DNA of 43,576 nucleotides from an uncultured Candidatus Saccharibacteria bacterium. Lineage in GTDB: Bacteria > Patescibacteriota > Doudnabacteria > UBA920 > O2-02-FULL-48-8. Shown piece by piece: positions 1,540 to 33,386 of the stretch. Within the stretch, counting starts at the first letter, position 1. Each line of letters begins with the position of its first letter. Below the pieces are notes generated by a model. The model had not been told where the DNA came from. It did no database searches and saw only the letters and a program-made list of their open reading frames with translations. The stretch spans positions 1-43,576 of the forward strand of contig CAYOPE010000004.1 of NCBI GenBank assembly GCA_964405805.1, given 5' to 3'. Position numbers and translations under genes: made by a program.

Positions 1540-1570
<31 letters not shown>

Positions 1571-1758
1571 GGTTAATACCCAAAACTTTCGCAAGAGAGC
1601 TAAGGTAAGAATCATGACTGGGGTGAAGTCGTAACAAGGCATCGGTAGCGGAAGCTGTCGATGGATCACCTCCTTTCTAAGGAGAAAATCTCTAAGGTTT
1701 AACTTAGAGACAATTGTCGATACGTGAAATTTATTCCCAATAAATTGTTTGCAAACTA

Positions 1759-1794
1759 AAACCGGCGGCCCTATTTTTAGGTGCGCCGGTTTTA
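1759..1794 (+). terminator. Hairpin plus U-run about 80 nt after the 16S 3' end
   Basis: ACCGGCGGCCCTA-TTTT-TAGGTGCGCCGGT followed by TTTT. It could alternatively be a processing stem. Confidence 0.5.
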
Positions 1795-1798
1795 AATT

Positions 1799-2467
1799 AT
1801 GTTAATCATTCCTGGTATGGATAAAAAAATTTCTGAACACAAAATTCGCGAGAAAATAGTCGTAGAGTTTTTAACTGATGTAGCAAACGAGGCAAATATA
1901 GTTTTTTATAGAAATGAAAGTGAAAGCTATATAGTCCCATTGAGGATACAACTGATAATTTCTTTCAGCCTTTTAGATTTATTTGCAAATTATTGGTATG
2001 AATATAAAGGGGAAACTGGAACGCAAAGTGGAAGAATGACAAGTTGGTATGATAAATATTGCAGAACATCAGAAAATGAAGTATATGCTTCAGATGACCA
2101 ATGGAAAGATTTAAGTTCTTCCCGATTGTCTGAGTTTCGTAATGCTCTAGTTCATTTTTTTGGTCTTGGAGAAGTAAAACCGAACGATATTTATCTTGCA
2201 CTTGTCTCTAATGATTTGCCTAAGATAGAGATAGAAAGTATGCGAACTAAATTCACGAATGGCGGTCATCCGACTATAATTGTCAAACCAATCGAGTTTC
2301 ATAGCCTCATTAAGAAGGGTGCGATATTGATGCTAGAAGAATGGGCTAATGTTATTAATCAATCGAAAAATAGCCAGACGATAACTTTGCAGTATATAAC
2401 TGCTATTGAAAGGGTATTTAATAAAATCCAAAAAGAAGGGGCAGTCCAAGTACTTAAGAAAAAATAG
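1799..2467 (+). CDS. Hypothetical protein with a HEPN-like Rx4H motif
   Basis: 222-aa AT-rich ORF. SEFRNALVHFFG contains R-N-x3-H, which matches the Rx4-6H HEPN RNase signature. No other family was recognised. Confidence 0.6.
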   Translation: MLIIPGMDKKISEHKIREKIVVEFLTDVANEANIVFYRNESESYIVPLRIQLIISFSLLDLFANYWYEYKGETGTQSGRMTSWYDKYCRTSENEVYASDDQWKDLSSSRLSEFRNALVHFFGLGEVKPNDIYLALVSNDLPKIEIESMRTKFTNGGHPTIIVKPIEFHSLIKKGAILMLEEWANVINQSKNSQTITLQYITAIERVFNKIQKEGAVQVLKKK

Positions 2468-2504
2468 TTTTGCACTTTTATTACTCACGGTATATAGTTT
2501 GATT

Positions 2505-2999
2505 ATGAAATTTTGGGAGAAAGTTAAAAGTTTAAGACTTCAGGATTGGGCAAACCTGATTATAATAATCGGTTTGCCATTAATGGTTTTCACTCTGTAC
2601 GAAAATAGTCTTTCTCAAACTGCAAATTTTGTGCTGGAATTTAACAAAGAACTAAGAAACAACCAGCCCTCCTTTTCTAAATTGATTTATGCAATTGATT
2701 ATAAAAGGCCATTGCTAAGTCCCAAGGGAGATTTTACTACAGAAGATTTAGATAATTTTTTAGTAACTTGGGAAATATTAAATTCGATTTATTCTAATAC
2801 TCATTTCGGTAGGTATATGATCTATGACGCATTTTCATATGATGTTGAAAATGCGTATTGTTATCCTGAAATTCGGGAATATATTAAATCCGCTAAACAG
2901 GATGCTAAAGACCCAGAGGTATATCGTGGATTTGAAGACTTAGCAGAGCATTTTATCAAAATAGATCGAACTGATTGTGCTAAAATCAATGGTGATTAA
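2505..2999 (+). CDS. Hypothetical protein with one N-terminal TM helix
   Basis: ATG 2505 was chosen because it avoids overlap with the upstream gene. The hydrophobic ANLIIIIGLPLMVFTLY segment is followed by a soluble domain. Directly follows the HEPN-like gene on the same strand. Confidence 0.6.
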   Translation: MKFWEKVKSLRLQDWANLIIIIGLPLMVFTLYENSLSQTANFVLEFNKELRNNQPSFSKLIYAIDYKRPLLSPKGDFTTEDLDNFLVTWEILNSIYSNTHFGRYMIYDAFSYDVENAYCYPEIREYIKSAKQDAKDPEVYRGFEDLAEHFIKIDRTDCAKINGD

Positions 3000-3011
3000 G
3001 CAGATAAATTT

Positions 3012-3602
3012 ATGAATCCAGAAATAACAGGAGCTGATACTCGCGACCAAAATCCTATTGAAATTGTGGAGCTTGGTCCAGATAACTGGGAAGTCCTACG
3101 TGATTTGAAGCTTAGGACTCTAGATCAGGAACCGATAGCTATGGAAGATCCTGAACCAGGAAGAAAGCGGATGCTCGAAAGAACTGAAGAAGAATGGAGA
3201 GCTATCATGTCAGGGGAGGTGGTCGGAAAAAAGCCATATGCGAAACGGTACAATAATTTTTTCGCGAAAGATTTAGTAAGCGGAAAGTATGTAGGATTAG
3301 TTCAGGCTGTCGTGTCAGAAGGTCAGTGGGAATATACAAGGCATGCACTTGTGCAAAATATGTTTGTCGATAATGAAGGACACAGAGGGCAGGGCACAGG
3401 CAAGAAATTACTCGGAGCGCTCATCGATGAGATGAAGGCTAGACGTGACATTAAATTTATTGAGCTCAATGTGGTTCTGACACAAGAACCGGCAATCAAT
3501 CTGTACAAAAGTTTCGGTTTCAAACAGATTCGAGATATTTTTAAAGTGAAAAGAGGCGACCAAGAATATGATGAGATGGAAATGAGATTAGAGCTTGAAT
3601 GA
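3012..3602 (+). CDS. GNAT-family N-acetyltransferase
   Basis: Acetyl-CoA motif A HRGQGTGKKLLGALIDEM, and the C-terminal INLYKSFGFK typical of GNAT. Confidence 0.85.
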   Translation: MNPEITGADTRDQNPIEIVELGPDNWEVLRDLKLRTLDQEPIAMEDPEPGRKRMLERTEEEWRAIMSGEVVGKKPYAKRYNNFFAKDLVSGKYVGLVQAVVSEGQWEYTRHALVQNMFVDNEGHRGQGTGKKLLGALIDEMKARRDIKFIELNVVLTQEPAINLYKSFGFKQIRDIFKVKRGDQEYDEMEMRLELE

Positions 3603-3608
3603 TAAAAT

Positions 3609-3629
3609 CCCGCCGAGAGGCGGTTTTTT
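3609..3629 (+). terminator. Intrinsic terminator (CCGCC-GAGA-GGCGG plus T6)
   Basis: 5-bp GC stem, tetraloop and T-run directly after the GNAT stop. Confidence 0.7.
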
Positions 3630-3643
3630 GTTTATTCGATTCG

Positions 3644-3652
3644 TGCTAGAAT
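3644..3652 (+). promoter_or_regulatory. Extended -10 promoter (TGCTAGAAT) of GC-rich cassette A
   Basis: TGnTAGAAT. It is followed by leader hairpin AAACCGC-GTAA-GCGGTTT (3669-3687) and SD AGGAGG. Confidence 0.5.
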
Positions 3653-3705
3653 AATTGAAACAAACATCAAACCGCGTAAGCGGTTTTCTTCGTAGGAGGA
3701 GAGCC

Positions 3706-4080
3706 ATGCTCGTGGCGCTTGTTATCGCAGGACTGTTTGTGGGCGCCGTCATCTACGGCAACTTGATGTACTCACGCGGGGCACGAGTCGAAGGACTCAG
3801 GCAGTCCATCGCGCTCCTCGCTTCCACCGTGGAGCTTTACAACGAAACTCTTCGTAGCTGGATTGCATACGCTGCAACCGAGCGAATTGAGGGCACACCT
3901 CTCCGGATCGAAATGCAGTGGAACGAGCAGATGGACTGGCTACGGAGCATGACTATCGTCATCAGAGATGGGTTCAAAGATCTCCGATACGAAGTCGTGC
4001 TCAAGGATCAGATTGCCAGGTCGCCTGGCGGCACGTTCACGATTGTCGGTGCTTTGGATTTCCAACCGAAATTCGACTAG
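3706..4080 (+). CDS. GC-rich cassette A: hypothetical membrane-anchored protein (124 aa)
   Basis: SD AGGAGG lies 5 nt before ATG 3706. N-terminal TM segment MLVALVIAGLFVGAVIYGNL. Composition looks GC-richer than the flanks. Confidence 0.65.
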   Translation: MLVALVIAGLFVGAVIYGNLMYSRGARVEGLRQSIALLASTVELYNETLRSWIAYAATERIEGTPLRIEMQWNEQMDWLRSMTIVIRDGFKDLRYEVVLKDQIARSPGGTFTIVGALDFQPKFD

Positions 4081-4089
4081 TGCAATCGG

Positions 4090-4136
4090 CAGGTCGTGGG
4101 GCATTCGCTGATGCTCCTGACCTGTCGTTTTTGTTT
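4090..4136 (+). terminator. Conserved cassette 3' hairpin, copy 1
   Basis: CAGGTCGTGGGGCA...CTCCTGACCTG plus TCGTTTTTGTTT. Related to copies at 5707 and 6261. Confidence 0.75.
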
Positions 4137-4137
4137 C

Positions 4138-4146
4138 TGATATAAT
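4138..4146 (+). promoter_or_regulatory. Extended -10 promoter (TGATATAAT) of uppP; leaderless geometry
   Basis: TATAAT is followed by 6 nt (CAATAC) and then ATG 4153. No SD is possible. Confidence 0.55.
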
Positions 4147-4152
4147 CAATAC

Positions 4153-5013
4153 ATGATTACATATTTTCAAGCTGCGATTCTAGGTTTGCTTCAGGGTGCC
4201 TCTGAGCTGTTTCCTATCTCGAGTCTCGGGCACAGTGTGATTTTGCCAAGATTAGTAGGCTGGAACATTCACCAGAACGATGCTTTTTTTCTGACTTTCC
4301 TAGTCGGCACGCATTTGGCCACAGCAGTAGTGCTGTTTTTCTTTTTCTTCAGAGACTGGGTTAGGATTGCTAGAGGAATTTTCGGCTCGATTGCGAAAAG
4401 ACAAATCAGCTCCACAGATCCGTATGCCAGATTGGGTTGGCTTTTAGTTGTGAGCACGATTCCTGCTGGGATTGTGGGTTTGCTGTTAAAAGAAAAAATT
4501 GCGAATCTATTTGCTTCACCAGTTTTAGCTGCGATATTTCTAGCAGTGAATGGACTATTGCTTTATGGCTCGGAAGTTTTGCGCAGGAAAGCCCATGAAA
4601 ATAACGATGAGCAAACTTCAGACCAGCGTCTAGCCAAATTATCATGGATACAAGCTGTGAAAGTCGGACTCATGCAAGTTTTGGCACTCATCCCAGGGCT
4701 CTCGCGCTCTGGCGCGACCATGGCAGGTGGACTTCTGGTCGGACTGTCCCACGAAGACAGCTTGCGTTTCAGTTTTCTTCTAGCAACCCCGATCATCGGG
4801 GCTGCGGCCGTACTTGAGTTGCCAGAATTGTTTGTCGCCTCAAATCGTGGTTTAGTAGGTCCGACTATTTTCGGCGCAGTCTGTGCTGCGGTGACTGCAT
4901 ATCTGGCGGTCAAATTTCTGATAAAATTTTTTCACACAAACAAACTAACCCCGTTTGCGATTTATTGTCTCGCTGCCGGAGTTATCTCTACACTGGTTTT
5001 ATATTTTAGGTAG
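4153..5013 (+). CDS. uppP: Undecaprenyl-diphosphate phosphatase (BacA/UppP)
   Basis: The N-terminal LLQGASELFPISSLGH signature, polytopic membrane profile and length (286 aa) are typical of UppP. Confidence 0.9.
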   Translation: MITYFQAAILGLLQGASELFPISSLGHSVILPRLVGWNIHQNDAFFLTFLVGTHLATAVVLFFFFFRDWVRIARGIFGSIAKRQISSTDPYARLGWLLVVSTIPAGIVGLLLKEKIANLFASPVLAAIFLAVNGLLLYGSEVLRRKAHENNDEQTSDQRLAKLSWIQAVKVGLMQVLALIPGLSRSGATMAGGLLVGLSHEDSLRFSFLLATPIIGAAAVLELPELFVASNRGLVGPTIFGAVCAAVTAYLAVKFLIKFFHTNKLTPFAIYCLAAGVISTLVLYFR

Positions 5014-5236
5014 TAGGCTTTGGGCCAGTCTGAAACCAAGCGTACACAAACAGCGCTATGGCTACCACAAACGATGCAATGCCGTGTTTGATATGAACGT
5101 GGTCAGAGCCAGAGAGGTAGCCTGGGTAGTAGTGCGGCAGACTGCCAGCACCGTGTGTCAGATAGACAATGCCGACGTAAGCGCACGCTAGACCTAAAAT
5201 TACTGCGATCGTGGCGAGAAGTTTATTCATAAGCAA
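5006..5236 (-). CDS. Small membrane protein (2 TM, 76 aa)
   Basis: Two hydrophobic helices flank HYYPGYLSGSDHVHIKHG. A minus-strand extended -10 TGATATAAT lies upstream. Converges on uppP with an 8-nt overlap. Confidence 0.55.
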   Translation of the reverse strand: MLMNKLLATIAVILGLACAYVGIVYLTHGAGSLPHYYPGYLSGSDHVHIKHGIASFVVAIALFVYAWFQTGPKPTT

Positions 5237-5259
5237 AGTTAATTGGTATTATTATATCA

Positions 5260-5268
5260 TGTTATAAT
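5260..5268 (+). promoter_or_regulatory. Extended -10 promoter (TGTTATAAT), back-to-back with the minus-strand promoter of 5006-5236
   Basis: TATAAT is followed by 6 nt (ATATAC) and then ATG 5275. Confidence 0.5.
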
Positions 5269-5274
5269 ATATAC

Positions 5275-5346
5275 ATGTCTGAAAGACGCCATATTTTCAT
5301 AGCTAGTCCTGCAAATATGGTTTTCGCGTATCCCGCCGCCGCGTAG
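5275..5346 (+). CDS. Candidate leaderless 23-codon leader peptide (MSERRHIFIASPANMVFAYPAAA)
   Basis: Same -10 plus 6 nt plus ATG geometry as uppP and PAP2. Its TAG stop lies inside the hairpin at 5333-5350. Confidence 0.3.
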   Translation: MSERRHIFIASPANMVFAYPAAA

Positions 5347-5357
5347 GCGGTTTTTTT
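5333..5357 (+). terminator. Leader hairpin CCGCC-N8-GGCGG plus T7 between the promoter and the SD of cassette B (candidate attenuator)
   Basis: GC stem plus a T7 run, located 18 nt before ATG 5375 and immediately before SD AAGGAGGG. Confidence 0.5.
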
Positions 5358-5374
5358 GTCCCAAGGAGGGAAGG

Positions 5375-5695
5375 ATGCTGCTTCATCTTGACTTGGATGC
5401 GGAAGCAGATGAGAAGTCTGCAACTGCTTCGGATGTCGAGGCTGCGAACCTCGAAGCGTCAGCAAGACTACTAGCCAGCGTGCGTCGGATCTGCTCTCTC
5501 CATCCTCGTGAAGAGCAGGAACTCAGAAATACTGGAGAGTGCATCGTCCGGCACTTCAGCCCAGTCTATTCTGTGAGCGAGGGCGATGCCCTCATCGCTC
5601 AGACCGAAGGGTTGGATGAAATACCCGTGAAGGTAGTCGAGATCATCCAGATCAAAAACAGGCGGAACTTGCGCATACAACTAGTTCCGGTCTGA
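5375..5695 (+). CDS. GC-rich cassette B: hypothetical acidic protein (106 aa)
   Basis: SD AAGGAGGG. Followed by conserved hairpin copy 2. No family recognised. Confidence 0.55.
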   Translation: MLLHLDLDAEADEKSATASDVEAANLEASARLLASVRRICSLHPREEQELRNTGECIVRHFSPVYSVSEGDALIAQTEGLDEIPVKVVEIIQIKNRRNLRIQLVPV

Positions 5696-5706
5696 TTTGA
5701 TCGCGG

Positions 5707-5752
5707 CAGGTCGTGGGGCACTCAGAGCGCTCCCGACCTGTCGTTTTTGTTT
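5707..5752 (+). terminator. Conserved cassette 3' hairpin, copy 2
   Basis: CAGGTCGTGGGGCACTCAGAGCGCTCCCGACCTG plus TCGTTTTTGTTT. Confidence 0.8.
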
Positions 5753-5764
5753 GCCCAACTAGGA

Positions 5765-5793
5765 TTGACGAGCTTGGTTTTTTATGATAAAGT
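5765..5793 (+). promoter_or_regulatory. Sigma70-like promoter of cassette C (TTGACG-17-TAAAGT)
   Basis: The hexamers and the 17-nt spacer were read directly from the sequence. Confidence 0.45.
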
Positions 5794-5820
5794 TTTTAGT
5801 CATCCAAGGAGGAGACACGC

Positions 5821-6240
5821 ATGATCACGAGCACAGACACGATCGCCGAAATGAACGAGCTGTTTGTAGGCAGGAAGGTTCGGATCAGCCACGAAGGTAA
5901 TCCGCGTCTCGAGGATGGCGAGGGCATCTGCAAGCAGTTCCACGTCACCGAGTCCGGTGTCGACATCGAGCTGATAGACGGCCGTCGGTGGGGATTCGTT
6001 CCCGAAAATCTGACGCCTCTGTGGACCGAGGGCCCGGTCGGGGGCTTCATCGCAGGCCGGCGCAAGATCGAACTCGTCGATACGGGTAAGTCGAGAATCG
6101 AGGACCTCGAGGAAGCGACCAGAAGGCTTCACGGGCTCCTGACCGACCCGCATCCGGGCCTGAGCACGTGGCAGGAAGCCCTGCACCGCGCCGGTCAGGA
6201 GCTGTACGATCGGCTGAAGGCCTACGTGCCGAATCCGTAG
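5821..6240 (+). CDS. GC-rich cassette C: hypothetical protein (139 aa)
   Basis: SD AAGGAGGAG lies 7 nt upstream. Followed by conserved hairpin copy 3. The longer antisense ORF 5800-6414 lacks these signals. Confidence 0.6.
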   Translation: MITSTDTIAEMNELFVGRKVRISHEGNPRLEDGEGICKQFHVTESGVDIELIDGRRWGFVPENLTPLWTEGPVGGFIAGRRKIELVDTGKSRIEDLEEATRRLHGLLTDPHPGLSTWQEALHRAGQELYDRLKAYVPNP

Positions 6241-6260
6241 CCTGATTGCTCTAAAGATGA

Positions 6261-6306
6261 CAGGTCGTGGGGCACTCAGAGCGCTCCCGACCTGTCGTTT
6301 TGTTTT
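6261..6306 (+). terminator. Conserved cassette 3' hairpin, copy 3
   Basis: The 34-nt hairpin is identical to copy 2 (identity continues 8 nt into the T-tract). The T-tract reads TCGTTTTGTTTTG. Confidence 0.8.
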
Positions 6307-6345
6307 GACCGCCCATCCCGATTCGTGTATTGTTTTGTAGATCCC

Positions 6346-6386
6346 GGGCCGACTGCCTACGCGCAGTCGGCCCTTGTTGTTTTTTT
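6346..6386 (+). terminator. Second, unrelated strong hairpin plus T-run with no gene in front of it
   Basis: GGGCCGACTGC-CTACGC-GCAGTCGGCCC plus TTGTTGTTTTTTT, 40 nt after copy 3. Confidence 0.6.
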
Positions 6387-6462
6387 GAGGTAAAAATGAA
6401 TCAAGGGTTTCCACGCTTTCACGTATGGAAACCCTTTTGGTATCATGGTCGATGATGTCGAG

Positions 6463-6879
6463 CTAGGCTTTAGTTTTTTTCTTTTTGAGGACTTCAGGCA
6501 TTGGCAGCCGCTCGGGAATCGGAAACTCTGGCAGCGGCCTAATCAATGTGGCGATCCAGGCCACCCCTTCTTCTCCGCCCGTCTGATCGCGGTCCGGAGT
6601 GTGCTTGTATCCCTGATCAGTCAGCCATAGGAGAACCTGCTCGCCGACTTTTTTCGCTTCTGCGCTGAGGTTGTCGACAGTACTGCAGTACTCGCAGACG
6701 ATGGAGCGATCCGTGCGATCTTGATCTCCACGAACGCGGAGAGCGATGTCGACGTTGTTCCAGACCCGGAAGATCGAGACCTCGAGTAACTGTTCCCAGG
6801 TCCAGATGCCGGTTCGATATTTCTCTAAATCCCTGGTCCAGGCCTTTGCTTCCAGCTGGCGCTTCTTACTCAGGCCCAT
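6463..6879 (-). CDS. GC-rich cassette D: hypothetical protein (138 aa)
   Basis: Minus-strand SD AAGGAGGAA before the ATG, and an extended -10 TGATACTAT upstream. Hairpin 6403-6436 lies downstream. Confidence 0.6.
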   Translation of the reverse strand: MGLSKKRQLEAKAWTRDLEKYRTGIWTWEQLLEVSIFRVWNNVDIALRVRGDQDRTDRSIVCEYCSTVDNLSAEAKKVGEQVLLWLTDQGYKHTPDRDQTGGEEGVAWIATLIRPLPEFPIPERLPMPEVLKKKKTKA

Positions 6880-6974
6880 CGATTCCTCCTTATCCGAACA
6901 GCACGATAAAGCATAGTATCATTAAACATTAAAAAAATCAACCACTGGCAGACGTTTTTGTTTGCGTTTTATTG

Positions 6975-6983
6975 TGCTAAAAT
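6975..6983 (+). promoter_or_regulatory. Extended -10 promoter (TGCTAAAAT) of the PAP2 gene; leaderless geometry
   Basis: TAAAAT is followed by 6 nt (TTGAAT) and then ATG 6990. Confidence 0.5.
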
Positions 6984-6989
6984 TTGAAT

Positions 6990-7655
6990 ATGAAATTCGT
7001 TCAAGGATTATTTTACAAATTCTGGCAGAATTTTCTGGCTTGTTTTTCAGGAGTCAATCTGCTTTGGCATGCCTTAGCGATTGCATTAACTTATGTGATT
7101 GTGACGAGCGGCTTTGATTGGAAATATCACCAGCTGCTCGGACATGGCCTGATTTTTAATTTATTTTTTCCAGCAGCCATCTTCGGATTTTTGGTACCAG
7201 TGGTCGTGCCTGCTGTGCTGCTTATAAAAGGCCAGAGGAATCCTAAAATTTTAAACACTGCTTTTGCGCTGATCCAAGGCGAGTTTCTCGGCTGGCTGAT
7301 TTCTGCTTGCTACAAAGCTGTCACTGGGCGTGTGCATCCAGAATTGTTTGTTTCGCAAACCGCAGATATCAGCCGCGTGTTTCACTTTGGGTTTATGCGC
7401 GGCGGGATTTTCTGGGGCTGGCCATCTTCGCATACAGCAGTGGCGTTTGCCGGATCCTTCGTCATCTTAGCTCTATATCGTGAGTCGAGACTTATGAAAA
7501 TTTTGGCAGTCCTATACGCCATCTATATTGGCTTAGGCGTTTCAATCAGTATCCACTGGTTTTCTGACTTCGTAGCAGGCGCGATCATGGGCACAATAAT
7601 CGGTATCACAGTGGGAAAAAGTTTTAAAAAGAGACTTGAAAGTTTGAATTCATGA
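6990..7655 (+). CDS. PAP2-family (phosphatidic acid / undecaprenyl-PP type) membrane phosphatase
   Basis: Motifs KAVTGRVHP, WPSSH and SIHWFSDFVAG fit the PAP2 pattern KxxxxxxRP / PSGH / SRxxxxxHxxxD. Multiple TM helices. Confidence 0.85.
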   Translation: MKFVQGLFYKFWQNFLACFSGVNLLWHALAIALTYVIVTSGFDWKYHQLLGHGLIFNLFFPAAIFGFLVPVVVPAVLLIKGQRNPKILNTAFALIQGEFLGWLISACYKAVTGRVHPELFVSQTADISRVFHFGFMRGGIFWGWPSSHTAVAFAGSFVILALYRESRLMKILAVLYAIYIGLGVSISIHWFSDFVAGAIMGTIIGITVGKSFKKRLESLNS

Positions 7656-8260
7656 ACCCCTGGCTTGAAATTTTTATAATATTTATTTTGCCAATACTAC
7701 TTTGGTATTTTGGTCTCGTTTCTATAAAATATCGATTTAGAGTTTTTGTGTTAATGAATATCGCTACGGTAATGATTGTATGGAAAGAACACTGGAGCTT
7801 AAGACAGTTTGGACTTCGAATTGATAATTTTTATGCTTCCACCGTTCCGTATATTTTGTTTACAATTATAGGGTTTCTCTTTTTATTTTTTCTTGCCAAG
7901 CTGCACAAAAGAGACATAGTTGACGAGCGGAAGACGAGCAACCATTTTATTTATTGGTTTATCATTCTCAGTTTTTCCCAAGAATTTTTATACAGAGCTT
8001 TTTTGATGCCTCGATTATTGGGATTGTTTTCTCCTGTGCTGGCAATAATAGTTAATACTTTTCTGTTTGGTATTTTACATATTATTTATCCCGAGTTAAA
8101 AAAGAATTTATTTATAATAGTGTTGGCTGGATTTGCCTTCGCGACCGTGTATTACTATTATCCAAACTTGATTCTAATAAGCATTTCTCACTCGATTTTA
8201 AATTACGTCGCAGTCATGTATGGCTATTTCAGTTTTTATAAAATAAAACAAACAATATGA
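7652..8260 (+). CDS. CPBP (CAAX protease/Abi) intramembrane metalloprotease
   Basis: SQEFLYRAF (EExxxR-like), FGILH (FxxxH) and SHSILN (HxxxN) lie within a polytopic membrane protein. Confidence 0.8.
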   Translation: MNPWLEIFIIFILPILLWYFGLVSIKYRFRVFVLMNIATVMIVWKEHWSLRQFGLRIDNFYASTVPYILFTIIGFLFLFFLAKLHKRDIVDERKTSNHFIYWFIILSFSQEFLYRAFLMPRLLGLFSPVLAIIVNTFLFGILHIIYPELKKNLFIIVLAGFAFATVYYYYPNLILISISHSILNYVAVMYGYFSFYKIKQTI

Positions 8261-8385
8261 TTGCTAGTAAGCGCTGAAGTTTTTTGGTATACTTCTCGCA
8301 ACACAAACATTAAACCGCTGAACTCACCCTCTGTCCCGAGAAGTCGGGACATCTCTCCCGCAAACGGGAGAGAAAAAATAGAAAG

Positions 8386-8985
8386 ATGACAGAGGCGGCT
8401 TTCTTTGTAGGGGGAATGATGAACATGAAGAGAACTTCGAATCAGGATCACGCTCTGAACTTGATCCGCCGGATTTGCGCTCTGGAGACCTCGGCGCATG
8501 AAGACTCGATCGTGTTTCAGGTCAGGGACGTGGGCGCCGGAATGGGCAGTCCTGGGAACGCTGTGAAGCAAGGGGTTTTGGCGGCGCTGGTGGTCATGGG
8601 TTATATTCGGATCATTCAGAAGCCTCACTCCACGCTGAATATCTATGGCGCGACAAGAGAGTCTCTCCAACGTCTCGGGCAAGATATGCGGCTGTCGCAG
8701 TGGAATCAGCTCGGACTTCGTCCGTATACTTACATCGTGCACGCGCAGGTGCGGCTGTCAGAGAACGATTCGGTCCGCAAGTTCGCACGTGAGTGGAACT
8801 GCTGGACAGAAGTCCGATCAGCTGACCTGATTACGGTGAAAGTCGACGGCTTCGATACCTACTTCTTCGTGAACAGTCGGATGATCGGGGATGGTCCTCC
8901 GATTCATCTGTGCTGCGGTCTGCAGATCATCAAGCCGGATCTGATGGACCATTTCGACATCGACTGTCACTGGAAAGACGAGTAG
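8386..8985 (+). CDS. GC-rich cassette E: hypothetical protein, possible N-terminal winged-helix domain (start uncertain: 8386, 8416 or 8425)
   Basis: Extended -10 TGGTATACT (8285-8293). Two leader hairpins (8333-8350, 8353-8372). A hairpin plus T-run follows the stop. The antisense ORF 8236-8742 lacks such signals. Confidence 0.55.
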   Translation: MTEAAFFVGGMMNMKRTSNQDHALNLIRRICALETSAHEDSIVFQVRDVGAGMGSPGNAVKQGVLAALVVMGYIRIIQKPHSTLNIYGATRESLQRLGQDMRLSQWNQLGLRPYTYIVHAQVRLSENDSVRKFAREWNCWTEVRSADLITVKVDGFDTYFFVNSRMIGDGPPIHLCCGLQIIKPDLMDHFDIDCHWKDE

Positions 8986-9086
8986 ATCATCGACATATGG
9001 CTGCGCTGGTGAACCTTTTCGGGTTTGCCAGCGTTGTTTTTTGTTCAGAAATTTGCTATAATATATTTGTTTTGTAGATAAACCTG

Positions 9087-9827
9087 ATGAAATCCAAATC
9101 AAAAAAACCAAAAACCTTTTTGGGCATGCGGCTGCATCCGGGGTGGACCGTGAAAAAAGGCAGCCGATTGGCTACCAAGCTTGTTAGTGCTACAGGAATT
9201 CCAGAAGCCTACTCTGAAACCACAGCGTGGTTTGCAGAAAGATTGATTTTGGCCGCAGTCTGCATCGCCACAGCTTCTTTTGCGTCAGGCGTTTTGTTTA
9301 CAGTTTACTTGTCAGAGCCGATCGGAAATAGTCAGGCCTATGATTATCTGGCCAGCAGAGCCGCAGTGGCCAAAGAGCAGTTTATAGACTTTGCTTCACC
9401 AATTTTTGAAAAGCTGCTTGCTGATAACTACGAAGACAAAATTAAAAAAGCTGAGCTCGACAAGCGTAAGCAGCAGATCAAAGAGTACTTGCTAGGCAAG
9501 CAGTCGCCATTCGCGCGTGATGATGACGCGCTAGCAGCACTTGCGCAATCGAAAAACATGAAGCTGATTCTAGCGATTTCGTTTGTAGAGAGCAATTTCG
9601 GCAAGCACTGCTTCTACTACAACTGCAGCGGCATCGGCGGGCCGAACCTTCGACGTTACGAAAGCTATGCTGAGTGGGTCACGGATTTTGATAATCTTTT
9701 AGAAAATCGTTATAAAGGTTTGCCACCAGAAAAGTTTCTCGGTCTGTATGTGCAGCCGGGTAGTCCCAACTGGCTTTATGGAGTGCGACAAATTTTAAAC
9801 GAGTTCAAAAAACAGGGGATCGGCTAA
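9087..9827 (+). CDS. Membrane-anchored protein, possible muramidase/glucosaminidase-like C-terminal domain
   Basis: Promoter TGCTATAAT at 9054. TM helix LILAAVCIATASFASGVLFTVYL. AISFVESNFGK weakly resembles the catalytic-Glu motif of cell-wall glycosidases. Confidence 0.6.
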   Translation: MKSKSKKPKTFLGMRLHPGWTVKKGSRLATKLVSATGIPEAYSETTAWFAERLILAAVCIATASFASGVLFTVYLSEPIGNSQAYDYLASRAAVAKEQFIDFASPIFEKLLADNYEDKIKKAELDKRKQQIKEYLLGKQSPFARDDDALAALAQSKNMKLILAISFVESNFGKHCFYYNCSGIGGPNLRRYESYAEWVTDFDNLLENRYKGLPPEKFLGLYVQPGSPNWLYGVRQILNEFKKQGIG

Positions 9828-10475: not shown

Positions 10476-10907
10476 ATGCAAAATAAGAATCGAAAAGGTT
10501 TCACCCTCATCGAACTTTTGGTGGTCATAGCCATCATTGGTATTTTGGCAGCCGTGGTATTAGTATCCCTAAACTCAGCCCGCCAGAAGTCTAGAGATGC
10601 TAGAAGACTTGCTGATGTCAGACAAGTCATGACAGCATTAGAACTCTACTATAACGATAACAATGGTTATCCCACAGCCACCTCAGGAGCCCCAACCACT
10701 ACAGATGGTTCTCCTGCCTGGTCAACCTACCTAGCCACCTGGCCCACTGTCCCTACCCCTGCAGATGGCACCTGTGGCAATGCTAATGCCTACACCTATG
10801 CTCAAACCTCTTCTGGAGCTTCCTACACCCTAGCCTTCTGTCTAGGAGCAGTCACTGGAGGCTACACAGCTGGTAGTCATACAGCTTCTCCATCAGGGAT
10901 ACAGTAA
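10476..10907 (+). CDS. Type IV (major-type) pilin, stand-alone copy
   Basis: Prepilin signal MQNKNRKG|[18 protein letters not shown] with Glu at +5. Has its own promoter TGATATAAT (10427) and its own terminator. Confidence 0.9.
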   Translation: MQNKNRKGFTLIELLVVIAIIGILAAVVLVSLNSARQKSRDARRLADVRQVMTALELYYNDNNGYPTATSGAPTTTDGSPAWSTYLATWPTVPTPADGTCGNANAYTYAQTSSGASYTLAFCLGAVTGGYTAGSHTASPSGIQ

Positions 10908-11546: not shown

Positions 11547-11624
11547 AGGGCGACTAGCTCAGGTGGTTAGAGCGCGTCACTGATAATGACGAGGTCGATG
11601 GTTCGAGTCCATCGTCGCCCACCA
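11547..11624 (+). tRNA. tRNA-Ile (anticodon GAU), CCA encoded
   Basis: The cloverleaf folds by hand: GGGCGAC/GTCGCCC acceptor stem, anticodon loop CTGATAA, T-loop TTCGAGT. Confidence 0.95.
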
Positions 11625-11630
11625 GAAATT

Positions 11631-11882
11631 ATGCATATTTTTAGCGGGCTAATTGGCGTAGCCGTAGGCTTCGTCTTAATTAAATACTCAGTGCCCTTGA
11701 CTGACATGTTTGGAAAAGTAGAATGGGCTGAAAGAAACTTGCGTGGGGGATTAGCCGGCACTTATTCACTATACAAAATAGTGGGAGTGATATTTATCAT
11801 CTTGTCGCTGCTCTATATGTTTGGCTTGATTGGCATAGTACTAGGACCTCTCAGTAACGTATTTGGCGGCGTTAAGCAATAA
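11631..11882 (+). CDS. 83-aa two-TM membrane protein that exactly fills the tRNA-Ile/tRNA-Ala spacer
   Basis: ATG 11631 lies 6 nt after the CCA of tRNA-Ile. The stop TAA (11880-11882) abuts G1 of tRNA-Ala (11883). Two clear hydrophobic helices. Confidence 0.6.
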   Translation: MHIFSGLIGVAVGFVLIKYSVPLTDMFGKVEWAERNLRGGLAGTYSLYKIVGVIFIILSLLYMFGLIGIVLGPLSNVFGGVKQ

Positions 11883-11956
11883 GGGCCTTTAGCATAATGG
11901 TAGTGCGCTCGGTTTGCATCCGAGATGTGGGAGTTCGATTCTCCCAAGGTCCACCA
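11883..11956 (+). tRNA. tRNA-Ala (anticodon UGC), CCA encoded
   Basis: GGGCCTT/AAGGTCC acceptor stem with the G3:U70 alanine identity pair. Anticodon loop TTTGCAT, T-loop TTCGATT. Confidence 0.95.
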
Positions 11957-19181: not shown

Positions 19182-19610
19182 ATGAAAAGAAAAAATTTTG
19201 GTTTCACCCTCATCGAACTTTTGGTGGTCATAGCCATCATTGGTATTTTGGCAGCCGTGGTATTAGTATCCCTAAACTCAGCCCGCCAGAAGTCTAGAGA
19301 TGCTAGAAGACTTGCTGATGTCAGACAAGTCATGACAGCATTAGAACTCTACTATAACGATAACAATGGTTATCCCACAGCCACCTCAGGAGCCCCAACC
19401 ACTACAGATGGTTCTCCTGCCTGGTCAACCTACCTAGCCACCTGGCCCACTGTCCCTACCCCTGCAGATGGCACCTGTGGCAATGCTAATGCCTACACCT
19501 ATGCTCAAACCTCTTCTGGAGCTTCCTACACCCTAGCCTTCTGTCTAGGAGCAGTCACTGGAGGCTACACAGCTGGTAGTCATACAGCTTCTCCATCAGG
19601 GATACAGTAA
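19182..19610 (+). CDS. Type IV pilin, operon copy (mature part identical to 10476-10907)
   Basis: SD-like GGGGGTG before ATG 19182. Signal MKRKNFG|FTLIEL. Confidence 0.9.
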
Positions 19611-24675: not shown

Positions 24676-25807
24676 TCTCATCAATCAACTTAAGAAAAAT
24701 TACCAGATCGTGGTTATCACGGTGGCTTTGATCTTCGCGGCAGTACTTGTTTTTTACTCTAAGCCTCATCAGTCGAAGCAGAGCACAAATTCTGAACCTG
24801 CTCAAGAAATTACGCAGATAAAAAATACATCCAACCTTTTAGATCAAGTTAAACTTTACAAACAATTGATTGATCGTGTGGGAGCAGCACAAGCTCAAGA
24901 AGATTTGCTACGTTCCGGATTGCCATTTACAGGACAGACTCATTTACTCAATCACACAGTAGGCGAATATTTGTATAAAACTAAAGGGGTGTCGGGTTTG
25001 TCAGAATGCAAAGAATATTTTTTGGCTTCCTGCTATCACGGATTTATTTTGGACGCCATCGCTGATGGTGGAATTCCGCAGGTCGTGAAAGTCATGCAAG
25101 CGTGTAAGCCGCAGGGAGCGGCAGTTTATCCGCAGTGCGCGCATGCAGTGGGCCATGGATTTTTAACCTACATTGATTATAAAAATATCCCGCAGGCGCT
25201 CGGCATGTGTGAGCAGATGCAGCAGCAAATTTCAGATTTTCCTCTGTTTAACTGTGAGGACGGGGTGTTTATGGAAAACATCTGGGGAGTGCATGATGGC
25301 GAGCCTTCGCCAAACCGCTGGGTAAAGGATTCCGATCATTTTTATCCTTGTGATGACAAGCGAATTGAATCCAAATATTTACTGGCCTGCTGGTCCAACC
25401 AGCCGTCACTCGCTTATCAGCAATTTCATGGGGATATAGCTGCGGTCGGAAAACTTTGCGCTACAGTCACCCCAGCAAATTTAGAAGAAATGTGCTTTAA
25501 TGGTTTGTCGCGACAAATTCATCCGATTGCCGCAGGAGATATCGACAAAACTTTTGAACTTTGTGGTCTTCTCGATGGCAAATGGAAAAATTATTGCATT
25601 GTGATTAATGATCAGGCATCGTTTGCCGTGGGGGATCGATCATTGCCGTTTGCGATTTGTAGTCGGATCGATGCGTCTGATAAAGACCGATGCTTCCAAG
25701 GCTTAATCGGAATGATTAGTGTCTATGCTAAAAGCTCAGATGACCGTACTCAGCTGTGTGCTCAGATTGCAGATGAGACTTGGCGCCAAAGATGTTTAGG
25801 CCGATAA
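24668..25807 (+). CDS. Membrane-anchored Cys-pair repeat protein, paralog 3
   Basis: Same architecture: NHTVGEYLY, CYHGF, CAHAVGHGFLTY, CEDGVFMEN. Confidence 0.75.
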   Translation: MTNLINQLKKNYQIVVITVALIFAAVLVFYSKPHQSKQSTNSEPAQEITQIKNTSNLLDQVKLYKQLIDRVGAAQAQEDLLRSGLPFTGQTHLLNHTVGEYLYKTKGVSGLSECKEYFLASCYHGFILDAIADGGIPQVVKVMQACKPQGAAVYPQCAHAVGHGFLTYIDYKNIPQALGMCEQMQQQISDFPLFNCEDGVFMENIWGVHDGEPSPNRWVKDSDHFYPCDDKRIESKYLLACWSNQPSLAYQQFHGDIAAVGKLCATVTPANLEEMCFNGLSRQIHPIAAGDIDKTFELCGLLDGKWKNYCIVINDQASFAVGDRSLPFAICSRIDASDKDRCFQGLIGMISVYAKSSDDRTQLCAQIADETWRQRCLGR

Positions 25808-25810
25808 ACT

Positions 25811-25840
25811 AAAAACCCAAGGATTATTCCTTGGGTTTTT
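25811..25840. terminator. Bidirectional terminator between convergent genes
   Basis: AAAAACCCAAGGA-TTATT-CCTTGGGTTTTT. Confidence 0.85.
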
Positions 25841-25854
25841 CTATAACCTCAAAC

Positions 25855-26346
25855 CTATCTCGTTCCCTGCTTTTCTAAGAGGATGATTGACCAGACTTTG
25901 TTTATGCCATCGCCTTTCATATCACCAACTTTGGTATCTTCTTTATAGTGATAAAGCGGAGTCGTACCATAGGAATACTGATAAGTTCCATCTTTTCTCT
26001 TAATCACGTTTAATCGTTTATACAGATCTCCGGTTAAAGTCTTCAAATCTTTATTGTCATACATAAATGGTGGCCAGTTTTGAGCGCAAGCGTCATAGCA
26101 GCTCGATTGGCCGTTTTTGTCATTGGCTGTAACGTATAGCGTCATACACTTGGAGTCAGTGAGGTAATTTCCAAGCTTCGAAGAAGCTGTCATGATAACT
26201 TCTTTAGTCGCCGAATTTGCACATGGGCTCGCTGTTTGATTATTATTTGTTACTTGAGGGGCAGAACTAGGATGACTGTTTAAAACTAGTATCACTGCGA
26301 TTACTACAGCTATCACCACGATTCCAATAGTGAGATTTTTATTCAT
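25855..26346 (-). CDS. Secreted-repeat protein of the Yx(FWY)xxD-motif lipoprotein family (COG4315-like)
   Basis: N-terminal TM/signal sequence. CYDACAQNWPPF and TPLYHYKEDTKVGDMKGDG match the family signature as I recall it. Confidence 0.75.
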   Translation of the reverse strand: MNKNLTIGIVVIAVVIAVILVLNSHPSSAPQVTNNNQTASPCANSATKEVIMTASSKLGNYLTDSKCMTLYVTANDKNGQSSCYDACAQNWPPFMYDNKDLKTLTGDLYKRLNVIKRKDGTYQYSYGTTPLYHYKEDTKVGDMKGDGINKVWSIILLEKQGTR

Positions 26347-26408
26347 TTTAGTGTTCGTTTCATTTTAAGTTAATTTCCTTTTTTAGATTATACTACATGC
26401 TTCAACTA

Positions 26409-26437
26409 TTGACAAATTGGCTTAAAAGGAGTACAAT
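26409..26437 (+). promoter_or_regulatory. Sigma70 promoter TTGACA-17-TACAAT of cassette F
   Basis: Hexamers read directly. Shares the 13-mer AACTATTGACAAA with the promoter at 30681. Confidence 0.6.
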
Positions 26438-26502
26438 TATACGCTACAGTAAAGGCAAGTACCGGGCAATCACGCCCAAAAAAATCGATGGAGGACACGC
26501 AG

Positions 26503-27558
26503 ATGCGCACGCATGAAATCGTGGCTAGTTTCGCATGCGTTGTCCTCTCGGGCAGCGCTTGCGGCGGCTCGTCCACACCGACCCCGCCGACGCAGCAGCC
26601 CACTCTGAGTATTCGTTCCTCAAACCAGCTGTACTTCGCTGGCGAGAGCTATCGGCTGAACGCGATGTTCCAGCAACCTGGACAAACTGCCCAGGACGTC
26701 ACCGTCCAAGCGACGTGGTCATCATCAGACCCGTCGGTGGCCACAGTCAACGCTGGCATAGTGAATGTCCTGGTGGACGGCAAGACCGCGGACATCACTG
26801 TCAAGTACCAAGACGTCACGTCGAAGGTGACTGTCTCGACCGGCTGGTTTCTGATCAAGGCCGACCCAGGAGTGTCTGCTACTGATCAAGACATCGTCCG
26901 TGATGGGGCAAACGTGGCGATTGACTACTACGCCTCAAAGTTGGGCTGGGTTCCTGAAAAGCAGATTACGATCACGCTGACGACAGCAAGTGGTAGTACT
27001 ACGGCCACTTCTGCTCCTTCAGCGCTGACCGTCTTCGTTACTGGTTCGGAGTGGCTGGTAACTGCAGCTGAGCTCAAGCGGAAGATCATAGGACATGAGC
27101 TCTTTCACGTGTTGCAGTACACCATCGCCTGGCTTGGCAATCACACGATACTTGACGACTGGCTCGTGGAGGGCAGCGCTGAGTACATGGGCTACCGAGC
27201 TGAAGTGATTGATCGCGGGATACAGGGAGCAGATCAGACCCGCGGTTGCCATCAGTTCTCGGTGGACAATTCGTCGACCCTGGTCACGCTGCCGTTGTCG
27301 AAGCTGGAAAACCAAGGCGACTTCCAGGCTGCTGCACACGCGAGCCCAGCCTATAGCCTGGCGTACCTCGCGGCTGAGCGAGCAGCCCAAGACAGAGGTC
27401 TTGGCTCGTTTATCGACTACGGTCGGTCGGCTGCCACGGCATCGCTCGCTGTCTCGTTTCAGAATGGGTTCGGCAAGCCGCTGAGCCAGTTCTACGACGA
27501 GTTCGAGACTTACCGGCGAACATGGGTTCATTCGCCGAACTATACCTGCCTGCACTGA
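26503..27558 (+). CDS. GC-rich cassette F: exported Ig-like (Big_2-type) plus HExxH zinc metalloprotease
   Basis: SD GGAGGA. Lipoprotein-like signal VVLSGSAC. Ig-like segment SSDPSVATVNAGIVNVLVDGKTADITVKY. Zinc site IIGHELFHVLQ plus EGSAEY. Confidence 0.75.
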   Translation: MRTHEIVASFACVVLSGSACGGSSTPTPPTQQPTLSIRSSNQLYFAGESYRLNAMFQQPGQTAQDVTVQATWSSSDPSVATVNAGIVNVLVDGKTADITVKYQDVTSKVTVSTGWFLIKADPGVSATDQDIVRDGANVAIDYYASKLGWVPEKQITITLTTASGSTTATSAPSALTVFVTGSEWLVTAAELKRKIIGHELFHVLQYTIAWLGNHTILDDWLVEGSAEYMGYRAEVIDRGIQGADQTRGCHQFSVDNSSTLVTLPLSKLENQGDFQAAAHASPAYSLAYLAAERAAQDRGLGSFIDYGRSAATASLAVSFQNGFGKPLSQFYDEFETYRRTWVHSPNYTCLH

Positions 27559-27582
27559 GAGGTAGGGTCTGCACGTTTCTCT

Positions 27583-27625
27583 GGGCGCGATGACTGGGAT
27601 TCCCGTCGTCGCGCTCTTTGTTTTT
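27583..27625 (+). terminator. 12-bp stem hairpin plus TTTGTTTTT
   Basis: GGGCGCGATGAC...GTCGTCGCGCTC. Confidence 0.7.
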
Positions 27626-27664
27626 ATCAGAAAAAATGTTATAATAATGCTATAAATTGCTCGA

Positions 27665-30672: not shown

Positions 30673-30673
30673 A
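30274..30673 (+). repeat. 400-bp perfect direct repeat, copy 1 (adhesin 3' end)
   Basis: Identical to 32987-33386 by direct reading. Includes the stop and the first nucleotides of a pilin start (ATGAA). Confidence 0.9.
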
Positions 30674-30680
30674 GTAACTA

Positions 30681-30709
30681 TTGACAAAAATTCTTTTTTG
30701 AAGTAAAAT
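30681..30709 (+). promoter_or_regulatory. Sigma70 promoter TTGACA-17-TAAAAT of cassette G
   Basis: Read directly. Inverted repeat ATTCCTA...TAGGAAT (30708-30734) overlaps the -10 and +1 positions. Confidence 0.6.
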
Positions 30710-30758
30710 TCCTAGTTACAATGTAGTTAGGAATTTTGGCTTTTCAAGGAGGAATGCC

Positions 30759-31478: not shown

Positions 31479-31498
31479 CGCACTGGCGTTGGTTCCGA

Positions 31499-31557: not shown

Positions 31558-31599
31558 ATAAAATATGGCATAATACAGATAGAATCTTACTTATTTTTC

Positions 31600-33385: not shown

Positions 33386-33386
33386 A
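32987..33386 (+). repeat. 400-bp perfect direct repeat, copy 2
   Basis: Identical to 30274-30673. Confidence 0.9.

Follow-up and report, generated by a model that had tools for sequence, protein, structure and literature searches.

In the 43,576-nt stretch of contig CAYOPE010000004.1 analyzed here (hereafter the window), short GC-rich genes, most of them single units with a promoter and a terminator of their own, lie scattered through an AT-rich chromosomal backbone. We consider it probable that these GC-rich segments are horizontally acquired gene islets, namely the single-gene units A-D and F-H and the five-gene island I. The islets differ from the backbone in composition and in their Shine-Dalgarno (SD) sites, carry their own expression signals, encode rare proteins and meet the backbone at junctions that an independent assembly reproduces where it spans them; at one site a related genome carries a different gene. 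From these observations we infer the foreign origin of each cassette, the type of donor and the route of insertion. An initial annotation of the window had proposed repeated acquisition of foreign cassettes, and this proposal is supported by the separate class of composition and codon usage, the SD signal, the patchy distribution of the genes, the relatives of G and the turnover seen in the related genome.

Composition and codon usage of the GC-rich genes

The mean GC content of the window is 43.5%, and values in 300-400-nt sliding windows ranged from 0.30 to 0.63. The GC-rich class comprised 12 open reading frames (ORFs; A, B, C, D, F, G, H, I1, I2, I2b, I3, and I4) and was compared with a backbone set of 41 genes. 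The GC-rich ORFs showed a GC content of 0.50-0.62 and a GC content at third codon positions (GC3) of 0.55-0.78 with a mean of 0.66, while GC3 of the backbone genes was 0.26-0.58 with a mean of 0.39 (Mann-Whitney p = 2e-7). Sliding-window GC, GC3 and codon usage all confirmed what had been noticed by eye, that these segments are GC-richer than their neighbors.

Relative synonymous codon usage (RSCU) was correlated among the three island groups (r 0.61-0.73) and among the backbone groups (r 0.68-0.80), whereas the correlation between island and backbone was -0.48 to +0.09. The dinucleotide distance delta* was 69-115 inside the island class and 113-212 between island and backbone. The encoded proteins differed as well, with a content of the GARP amino acids of 0.27-0.29 in the islands and 0.16-0.21 in the backbone, and FYMINK content differed also. 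Codon position 2 had the lowest GC in 11 out of 11 ORFs checked (all except I2b). Because of this coding pattern, and because the D and G families have conserved columns, we take the GC-rich ORFs to be real genes.

We also considered whether the GC-rich patches were hidden structural RNAs. This was true only of positions 825-956, which had been listed as a GC-rich island and which lie inside a group I intron of the 16S rRNA gene (665-1096); no gene cassette is present there. Rfam gave no match in 3400-9200, even at E = 1.

A third compositional class was observed, with GC of 0.32-0.36, GC3 of 0.26-0.37 and FYMINK content of 0.38, consisting of genes mostly without family matches. These very AT-rich genes lie at 1799-2999, 7652-8260, 27665-29386, 31600-32151, and 37958-39181. 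The backbone itself is therefore heterogeneous and may include AT-rich imports.

Shine-Dalgarno sites

A strong SD was defined as an SD:anti-SD duplex of -7 kcal/mol or stronger. Such a site preceded 11 out of 12 GC-rich ORFs and 3 out of 41 backbone genes (Fisher p = 5e-8), in agreement with the earlier description of AGGAGG-type sites on the GC-rich ORFs and weak or missing ones on the backbone. The commonest cassette SD was AAGGAGGA. For F the result depended on the start codon: the SD claimed for this cassette was not found from the start at 8386, whereas the start at 8425 gives the SD GGGGGA (-9.3 kcal/mol), brings the count to 12 out of 12 and fits the 186-aa product length at NCBI. Only 8% of the internal 20-mers of the same GC-rich ORFs reached -7 kcal/mol, so the strong SD is not a by-product of GC content. 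The 3' end of the 16S rRNA gene keeps CCTCC, the anti-SD. The leaders of backbone genes are A/T-rich and G-poor, and some backbone starts directly follow a -10 box, for example that of UppP (TGATATAAT-N7-ATG).

Initiation that makes little use of the SD, with A-rich leaders, is reported to occur in Bacteroidota (work of Baez and colleagues in 2019), and the backbone genes resemble that case in having no SD and A/T-rich, G-depleted leaders. Some Parcubacteria are known to have lost the anti-SD (PMC9297842); in contrast, CCUCC is kept in the 16S rRNA studied here and a minority class of genes is strongly SD-led. An SD versus no-SD dichotomy that marks imported genes in the Candidate Phyla Radiation (CPR) was not described in the literature that we searched. 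The dichotomy is the expected consequence of recent transfer from SD-using donors.

Architecture of the individual cassettes

Every GC-rich patch contained a sigma-70-like promoter and an intrinsic terminator. The idea of self-contained units in separate intergenic slots holds for these signals, but B, C, and D form one contiguous patch of 1.6 kb.

Cassette A (3644-4136, plus strand) has an ORF at 3706-4080 for a protein of 124 aa with a predicted N-terminal transmembrane helix (GC 0.55, GC3 0.66). An extended -10 element, TGCTAGAAT, lies at 3644-3652 and is followed by a hairpin in the 5' untranslated region (UTR) at 3669-3686 and the SD AGGAGG (-10.2 kcal/mol). The terminator, copy 1 of a repeated hairpin, lies at 4087-4136 (-28.1 kcal/mol) and also provides the -35 element of the UppP promoter.

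Cassette B (5260-5752, plus strand) has an ORF at 5375-5695 (106 aa; GC 0.53, GC3 0.57), a -10 element TGTTATAAT at 5260-5268, the SD AAGGAGGG (-11.7 kcal/mol) and hairpin copy 2 at 5704-5752. Between promoter and ORF there is a leaderless mini-ORF of 23 codons, MSERRHIFIASPANMVFAYPAAA, at 5275-5346. It begins 6 nt past TGTTATAAT, and its stop lies within the loop of a terminator-like hairpin (5333-5358, with a T7 run) just 5' of the SD of B. This mini-ORF may act as a leader-peptide attenuator, or it may be all that is left of a disrupted gene.

Cassette C (5765-6306, plus strand) has the promoter TTGACG-17-TAAAGT at 5765-5793, the SD AAGGAGGAG (-11.2 kcal/mol) and an ORF at 5821-6240 (139 aa) with the values GC 0.62 and GC3 0.78. 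Hairpin copy 3 lies at 6258-6306, and the terminators of A, B, and C fold at -28 to -30 kcal/mol. The AlphaFold2 (AF2) model of C had a pLDDT of 70, and Foldseek found no fold in the PDB that matched it. A further terminator hairpin without an ORF, with an 11-bp stem of which 9 pairs are GC, lies at 6346-6385 on the plus strand between the terminator of C and the end of D, and may be the scar of a lost cassette.

Cassette D (6395-6941) is on the minus strand. Its promoter TTGATT-17-TACTAT (6941-6913) and SD AAGGAGGA (6891-6884, -11.1 kcal/mol) precede an ORF at 6879-6463 (138 aa; GC 0.55, GC3 0.66), and a terminator hairpin lies at about 6440-6395.

Cassette F (8261-9046, plus strand) has an ORF from 8386 or 8425 to 8985, giving 199 or 186 aa, with GC of 0.54 and GC3 of 0.68, and a terminator at 9003-9046.

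Cassette G (26404-27628, plus strand) has the promoter TTGACA-17-TACAAT, the SD TGGAGGA, an ORF at 26503-27558 (351 aa; GC 0.58, GC3 0.67) and a terminator behind it. The product is predicted to have a lipoprotein signal, a Big_2 domain and an uncharacterized metallopeptidase-like domain with the motif HELFH...EGSAEY.

Cassette H (30676-31560, plus strand) has the promoter TTGACA-17-TAAAAT, the SD AAGGAGGA (-11.2 kcal/mol), an ORF at 30759-31478 (239 aa; GC 0.57, GC3 0.62) and then a terminator. A signal peptide and an HELGH motif are predicted in its product, for which the AF2 model was of low quality. Both the G and the H promoter match the TTGACA-N17 type at 11 of 12 positions. The 5' UTR of H contains a palindrome, AATTCCTA-N13-TAGGAATT, at 30712-30740.

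H lies between two tandem paralogues, h429 (29383-30672) and h413 (32144-33385), which have 400-nt 3' ends that are 100% identical (30274-30673 = 32987-33386). Both paralogues hold long repeats with periods of 6, 12, and 18 nt (TACCAG/TATCAA) at 29641-29891 and 32405-32605. One contig of the Logan assemblies (L083) starts at the left edge of the h429/h413 repeat.

Island I (39212-41710, plus strand) has two transcription units with five ORFs, all five of them with an SD (-8.6 to -12.9 kcal/mol). Unit 1 contains I1 (39265-40002), with a PRT domain, I2 (40013-40237), with a predicted transmembrane segment, and I2b (40248-40433), followed by a terminator. Unit 2 contains I3 (40582-41169) and I4 (41179-41649), which both have an excisionase-type helix-turn-helix (HTH), and a second terminator. 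Palindromes were seen in the 5' UTRs of this island too, GAGCGAttaaTCGCTC before I1 (39236-39251) and TGTTGGTTcAACCAACA before I3 (40554-40570). The palindromes in the cassette 5' UTRs may be operators or mRNA-stabilizing hairpins.

The earlier statement that several products are exported or membrane proteins agrees with the predictions for A and I2 (transmembrane), G (lipoprotein) and H (signal peptide).

Assembly check and related contigs

Over 1540-5736, 25753-28233, and 30274-31803, contigs of an independent assembly (Logan, run SRR12313479) matched the window with 100% identity. These stretches cross the boundaries between AT-rich and GC-rich DNA at A, G, H, and the 5' side of B. An assembly chimera, in which GC-rich pieces of another organism were mis-joined to the backbone, might be suspected of a metagenome-assembled genome (MAG), particularly as the short Logan contigs suggest low coverage. 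Not only did the independent assembler give identical sequence over three stretches with junctions, but the junctions are also functionally seamless, with the A terminator serving as source of the UppP -35 element, and about a dozen joins, each exactly at a promoter or terminator, would be implausible. The same mosaic also recurs in JGI and ENA contigs of other samples. Because the junctions are reproduced and the mosaic is found elsewhere, chimerism is very unlikely, to a degree that we regard as scarcely credible, and the mis-assembly that the initial annotation named as a possible refutation did not appear at the junctions that these contigs span.

The JGI contig (L087) contains an orthologue of the backbone gene hyp246 (9087-9827 in the window), which has 64.5% aa identity, GC of 0.44 and no SD. 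On one side of this orthologue is a GC-rich gene of the D family (GC 0.56). On the other side is a stretch with GC of 0.55 in which GGAGGA stands five bases before a minus-strand ATG; by eye this was read as an SD-led ORF cut short by the end of the contig. At the nucleotide level the window and L087 cease to be homologous at 9050, between the F terminator (9003-9046) and the hyp246 promoter. Past this point the window has F, whereas L087 has the D-like gene in the opposite orientation. The same intergenic site thus differs in gene content between the two genomes at this one locus, the kind of presence/absence difference that the initial annotation had suggested looking for in sister genomes.

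The D copy of L087 is 40% identical to D of the window and no closer to it than are copies on unrelated contigs, which argues for turnover or independent acquisition and not for vertical descent. Because a related genome has other cassettes beside the same backbone gene, cassette turnover appears to be fast relative to the backbone. The D-family gene of L087 (1356-1784) is without its first ~12 codons and SD, and the only nearby ATG (1364) is out of frame and lies 10 nt past a TTGATT-17-TAATAT promoter; this gene is decaying, frameshifted or becoming leaderless. The ENA contig (L088) holds a D-family cassette with a TTGATT-N17-TATAAA promoter, the SD AAGGAGGA and a hairpin terminator, and the cassette stands behind an AT-rich flank. 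D-family cassettes had GC3 of 0.61-0.66 in every contig that carries one. Their promoters, terminators and flanks could not be aligned beyond the shared TTGATT -35 hexamer.

An older import, UppP-tm74

Between A and B lie two genes of a different kind, UppP (4153-5013, plus strand, with a BacA Pfam match) and, adjoining it on the minus strand, tm74 (5006-5230 or 5236), a small membrane protein. This UppP shares 60-70% identity with its counterparts in about 80 loci of Thermoleophilia/Gaiellales/Solirubrobacterales with 67-74% GC. In 80 loci that were retrieved, almost all from those actinomycetotal lineages, a tm74 homologue (~50% identity) adjoins UppP. Since the homologues are paired in 80 loci, the module has moved between Actinomycetota and CPR. 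The pair is also seen in a few CPR MAGs; the actinomycetotal and CPR loci together are L002-L081.

In the window, UppP and tm74 have GC3 of 0.44-0.53, backbone-like codon usage, a leaderless promoter and no SD. On the evidence of its sequence the pair is an older, ameliorated two-gene import that stands outside the GC-rich class. The initial annotation had treated this slot as AT-rich native backbone, which cannot be maintained, the pair being old imports. The region holds imports of different ages, and the older one links the lineage to GC-rich soil Actinomycetota. This link would be compatible with an episymbiont-host relationship, short of proof.

A search of GTDB representatives through UppP for close sister genomes gave none, with only UppP and tm74 in common. 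Four CPR-labelled or low-GC loci with this UppP (L002, L003, L030, and L075) were SD-poor too in a crude scan. Two of these (L030 and L075) are GC-rich Saccharimonadales, which had been considered as SD-rich donors and were rejected on this result.

These data also bear on whether the GC-rich, SD-led genes could be native, their composition being due to selection for a separate expression regime or to GC-biased gene conversion in recombining accessory genes. The D family is GC-rich in all contigs, that of the sister genome included, the promoters and terminator tails are host-like, and the anti-SD has been kept though native genes hardly use it, all of which a native origin would accommodate. 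However, biased gene conversion does not create SD sites, and amino-acid composition is shifted together with codon usage. The cassettes are orphans without conserved position, the sister D being 40% identical where the flanking orthologue is 64.5% identical, and UppP-tm74 shows that imports ameliorate here. We therefore regard a native origin as highly doubtful.

Terminators and repeats

The A, B, and C units end in a near-identical 50-nt hairpin, CAGGTCGTGGGGCA(Y)...GCTCC(Y)GACCTGTCGTTTTTGTTT, although their proteins are unrelated; the B and C copies are identical throughout the stem-loop. In a comparison of the cassettes, the idea that they are paralogues of each other was rejected, with no similarity found. 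The two terminators of island I (40448-40482 and 41662-41696) are 80% identical. A tail motif, TTTTTGTTT, stands at the end of the GNAT, A, and B units and again ahead of PAP2, and a (C/G)GTTTTTGTTT tail delimits every module in the 3.6-7.0 kb region. The C+D block has an exact copy of the 13-nt repeat CGTTTTTGTTTGC on either side. The initial annotation had reported neither mobility genes nor flanking repeats; integrases and transposases are indeed lacking, but the A/B/C hairpin copies and the CGTTTTTGTTTGC repeat do exist. On the promoter side, G and H share the upstream motif AACTATTGACAAA, which the backbone gene hyp101 has with one mismatch, and the expression signals are therefore host-like.

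Searched for strictly or in relaxed form, the A/B/C hairpin was absent from JGI metagenome contigs and IMG/VR. One terminator in L088 has the stem base ACAGGTCG...CCTGTC in common with it, and a T-run comes next; no other match was seen among 88 loci, and the chance expectation is ~2-5%.

A near-identical GC-rich palindrome directly after the stops of unrelated genes resembles terminators built from repetitive extragenic palindromic (REP) sequences or bacterial interspersed mosaic elements (BIME), or from uptake-sequence pairs. Unlike REP/BIME, the palindrome occurs here in three local copies only and had no match in the public collections searched. The cassettes also resemble those of integrons, which are small, carry one ORF each, mostly an orphan, stand in arrays and have a hairpin-forming repeat at the end. 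In contrast to integrons, there is no IntI in the window, the units have promoters of their own, and one cassette is inverted. Integron attC sites differ from the ~34-nt stem-loop with a T-run found here, which has no R/L boxes and no GTTRRRY core and is a Rho-independent terminator.

One explanation of the repeats is a lineage-specific pool of cassettes that are exchanged among related CPR genomes by recombination at conserved terminator hairpins or tails, in an integron-like manner and without a recognizable integrase in the window. It would account for the three unrelated ORFs with the same hairpin, for the tail motif and 13-nt repeat that delimit modules, and for D-family cassettes whose position is not the same in the window, in L087, and in L088. 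The stem base shared by the L088 terminator and the codon usage common to the three island groups fit it as well. However, the hairpin has only three copies, all local, and is absent from JGI metagenome contigs and IMG/VR, the attC features are missing, each cassette has its own promoter, D is inverted, and the D-family flanks do not align. T-rich tails are expected at any intrinsic terminator, and the L088 match has a chance expectation of a few per cent. We judge such an exchange mechanism to be improbable. For the acquired islets that we favor, the repeats would fit either acquisition of each patch as a block from a donor with REP-like terminators or recombination at terminator tails.

Relatives and possible donors

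The products were confirmed as orphans, as they had been described, by family-library, clustering and homologue searches. For C only the self match was found among 5.8 billion proteins. At 90% identity, the only sequences grouping with A, B, D, F, G, H, I1, I3, I4, and tm74 came from this genome or from Logan contigs of the same run. There was no credible match for A, B, C, D, or F in Pfam, PHROG, NCBIfam, or PADLOC, the sole family-library match among these five being that of A to MsbA with 18 bits against a cut-off of 867. An exhaustive HMMER search of 1.84 billion representatives gave only 3 relatives of D, with 41-43% identity and 26 invariant columns; D apparently represents a real but rare protein family.

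The relatives of G (30-47% identity) lie on contigs of uniformly 56-65% GC, which match the 58% GC of G itself, as expected if the G family is at home in moderately GC-rich organisms. The contig of the closest G relative (L084) has a defense-island-like neighborhood at 4143-6952, with DruA (PF14236) and a DUF87/HerA-like ATPase. Sequence searches of the PDB with G, H, and the G-family profile gave nothing.

Twelve proteins, concatenated, were searched with tblastn against 50,697 phage and 72,556 plasmid records without a match, and the D and G families had no relatives in IMG/VR. The phage-like content was limited to the two excisionase-type HTH proteins of island I. I1 matched ShosT over the PRPP loop only (residues 161-202, 26.7 bits); as the toxin match is partial and no ShosA-like partner is present, I1 was rejected as a Shosta (ShosT) defense system. 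Domain searches of ORFs of at least 90 aa found no integrase, transposase, recombinase, or phage capsid, terminase, or portal gene in the window, and neither of its two tRNA genes is adjoined by a cassette.

These results can be set against the idea that the cassettes are debris, or 'morons', of decayed mobile elements, whether integrative elements, plasmids or phages of the lineage or of its host. Juhala, Hendrix and co-workers are said to have described the moron in 2000 as an ORF with its own promoter and terminator between resident genes, with deviant composition. The units here share this architecture and fit the definition, many products are small orphans, and the terminators repeated inside patches suggest that each patch arrived as a block. 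Island I adds two excisionase/MerR-type HTH_17 proteins and, in I1, a weak ShosT match below the level of membership. The difference is that morons belong to phage genomes, whereas these units lie in a cellular chromosome without phage genes. The negative searches for mobility and phage structural genes, phage and plasmid matches and IMG/VR relatives speak against such an origin, as do the marginal PHROG matches and the housekeeping nature of the surrounding genes. We consider this origin possible, although rather unlikely.

As to donors, the initial annotation had named a GC-rich host or a phage of an episymbiont. The host is supported only indirectly, through the older UppP-tm74 shared with Thermoleophilia. 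The phage has no support beyond the two excisionase-type HTH proteins of island I, and the tblastn and IMG/VR searches were negative.

A proposed course of acquisition

In the course of events that we propose, the islets would have come from donors, in one pool or several, that use the SD and are moderately GC-rich (roughly 55-65% GC), and would have been placed in intergenic gaps of an AT-rich chromosome with SD-independent native genes (with A-rich or leaderless 5' ends). DNA uptake, for which the type IV pilus encoded in the window is a candidate, may have been followed by illegitimate or microhomology recombination at the T-rich tails of terminators. Each islet would then act as an independent transcription unit, driven by a sigma-70-type promoter in AT-rich DNA. 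Its SD would pair with the CCUCC still intact at the tail of the resident 16S rRNA, and the next gene would be insulated by a strong intrinsic terminator. In so compact a genome, an insertion would survive selection only if it lay between genes and either brought along or gained a promoter and a terminator. Older imports, UppP-tm74 among them, would drift to the composition of the host and lose their SD.

Several observations weigh against the acquisition of foreign islets. The window has no integrase or transposase gene, and the sister comparison consists of one short contig (L087) and one site. A donor sequence was found for no cassette, the remote-homologue search not validly covering A, B, F, and H, and foreign origin therefore rests on composition, signals and distribution and not on phylogeny. 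Simple independent transfers leave unexplained why three unrelated ORFs have one 50-nt terminator. Finally, AACTATTGACAAA precedes the backbone gene hyp101 and TTTTTGTTT follows GNAT and tRNA-Ala; with such host-style promoters and tails, one must assume that the signals were domesticated once inserted or that the donor had similar ones.

The host chromosome

The window belongs to a cellular chromosome, the idea of a phage genome being ruled out by its 16S and 23S rRNA, its tRNAs, a type IV pilus cluster and LigA. In megablast searches against phages only the rRNA matched, and the 16S was at most ~83% identical to 16S sequences in the phage collection. The nearest UppP sequences are those of a 'Ca. 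Doudnabacteria' MAG and another low-GC MAG, with 'Ca. Saccharimonadales' MAGs also among the near ones. Because of these UppP sequences and the divergent, intron-bearing 16S, an origin in Patescibacteria/CPR is likely, and the host, as far as sequence comparison can tell, is probably a soil bacterium of this group.

Rfam placed the 3' two-thirds of the 16S rRNA at 1-1676 (RF00177 SSU, 893 bits), interrupted by the group I intron on the plus strand at 665-1096 (RF00028, 52 bits). This intron has 432 nt, into which a homing endonuclease seemingly would not fit, and AT-rich tandem repeats of 7/14 nt follow on its 3' side (1126-1218). The Rfam search also located tRNA-Ile(GAT) at 11548 and tRNA-Ala(UGC) at 11883, in a tRNA stretch of 11548-11956, and the start of the 23S rRNA gene at 42286. 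The rRNA operon is split, with 40.6 kb between 16S (1-1676) and 23S (42286-43576) on the same strand. The two tRNA genes lie 9.9 kb past the 16S and 30 kb ahead of the 23S, and protein genes with the whole type IV pilus cluster intervene.

The 23S has a perfect TTGACA-17-TATAAT promoter of its own at 41734-41762. Upstream of the 23S, at 41947-42123, is an inverted TACGAA/TTCGTA array (arms 41962-41985 and 42000-42023), and more long inverted repeats lie near the 23S (42035-42060/42098-42123 and 42149-42224). The inverted repeats ahead of the 23S may be processing stems or regulator sites.

By domain matches, the backbone encodes GNAT, UppP/BacA, PAP2, and a CAAX protease. The type IV pilus cluster is complete in the window (PilM, N, O, B, T, C, prepilin peptidase, and several pilins), and further products are DsbA-like thioredoxins, a LysM protein and the NAD-dependent DNA ligase LigA. 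Two pilin genes are 100% identical over 300 nt (10497-10796 = 19200-19499), which suggests recent duplication or gene conversion in a genome that is otherwise poor in paralogues.

Significance for gene exchange in CPR bacteria

The genomes of CPR/Patescibacteria are tiny, and gene exchange is regarded as their main source of innovation. Horizontal gene transfer (HGT) is already documented in this group, and the pattern seen here does not amount to a new kind of system. In Patescibacteria, genomic islands together with genes transferred individually make up as much as 13% of genome length, and pili and competence have been proposed as the uptake route (PMC12455944, mSystems 2025). The islets described in that study resemble ours in being compositionally atypical accessory genes of small CPR genomes, with products that are often membrane or secreted proteins. 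They differ in that most units here consist of one gene, with a promoter and terminator belonging to it, are GC-richer and not AT-richer than the genome, and show a near-perfect dichotomy of SD and no SD. As a case of recently imported genes the contig is clean, though it has precedents.

A more far-reaching interpretation is that soil CPR bacteria share a lineage-wide cassette pool which stays distinct in composition through continual re-import, is inserted at terminator hairpins or T-tails and is expressed through an orthogonal, SD-based channel. This is speculative, and we think it unlikely to be correct. If true, the sources would be a GC-rich host such as Thermoleophilia or an unrecognized GC-rich mobile element, and the retained anti-SD would mainly translate accessory, host-interaction genes in an otherwise SD-independent proteome.

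For the acquired islets as such, the imports can be recognized by two independent marks, their composition and a translation signal that resident genes do not use. Fresh cassettes, with the SD kept and GC3 of 0.55-0.78, stand beside the ameliorated, leaderless and SD-less UppP-tm74. In SD-poor lineages the SD mark could detect recent HGT genome-wide. The exported and membrane products, the two predicted HExxH proteins included, are candidate host-interaction factors, and the link of UppP-tm74 with Thermoleophilia is a testable hint on the host of a soil episymbiont.

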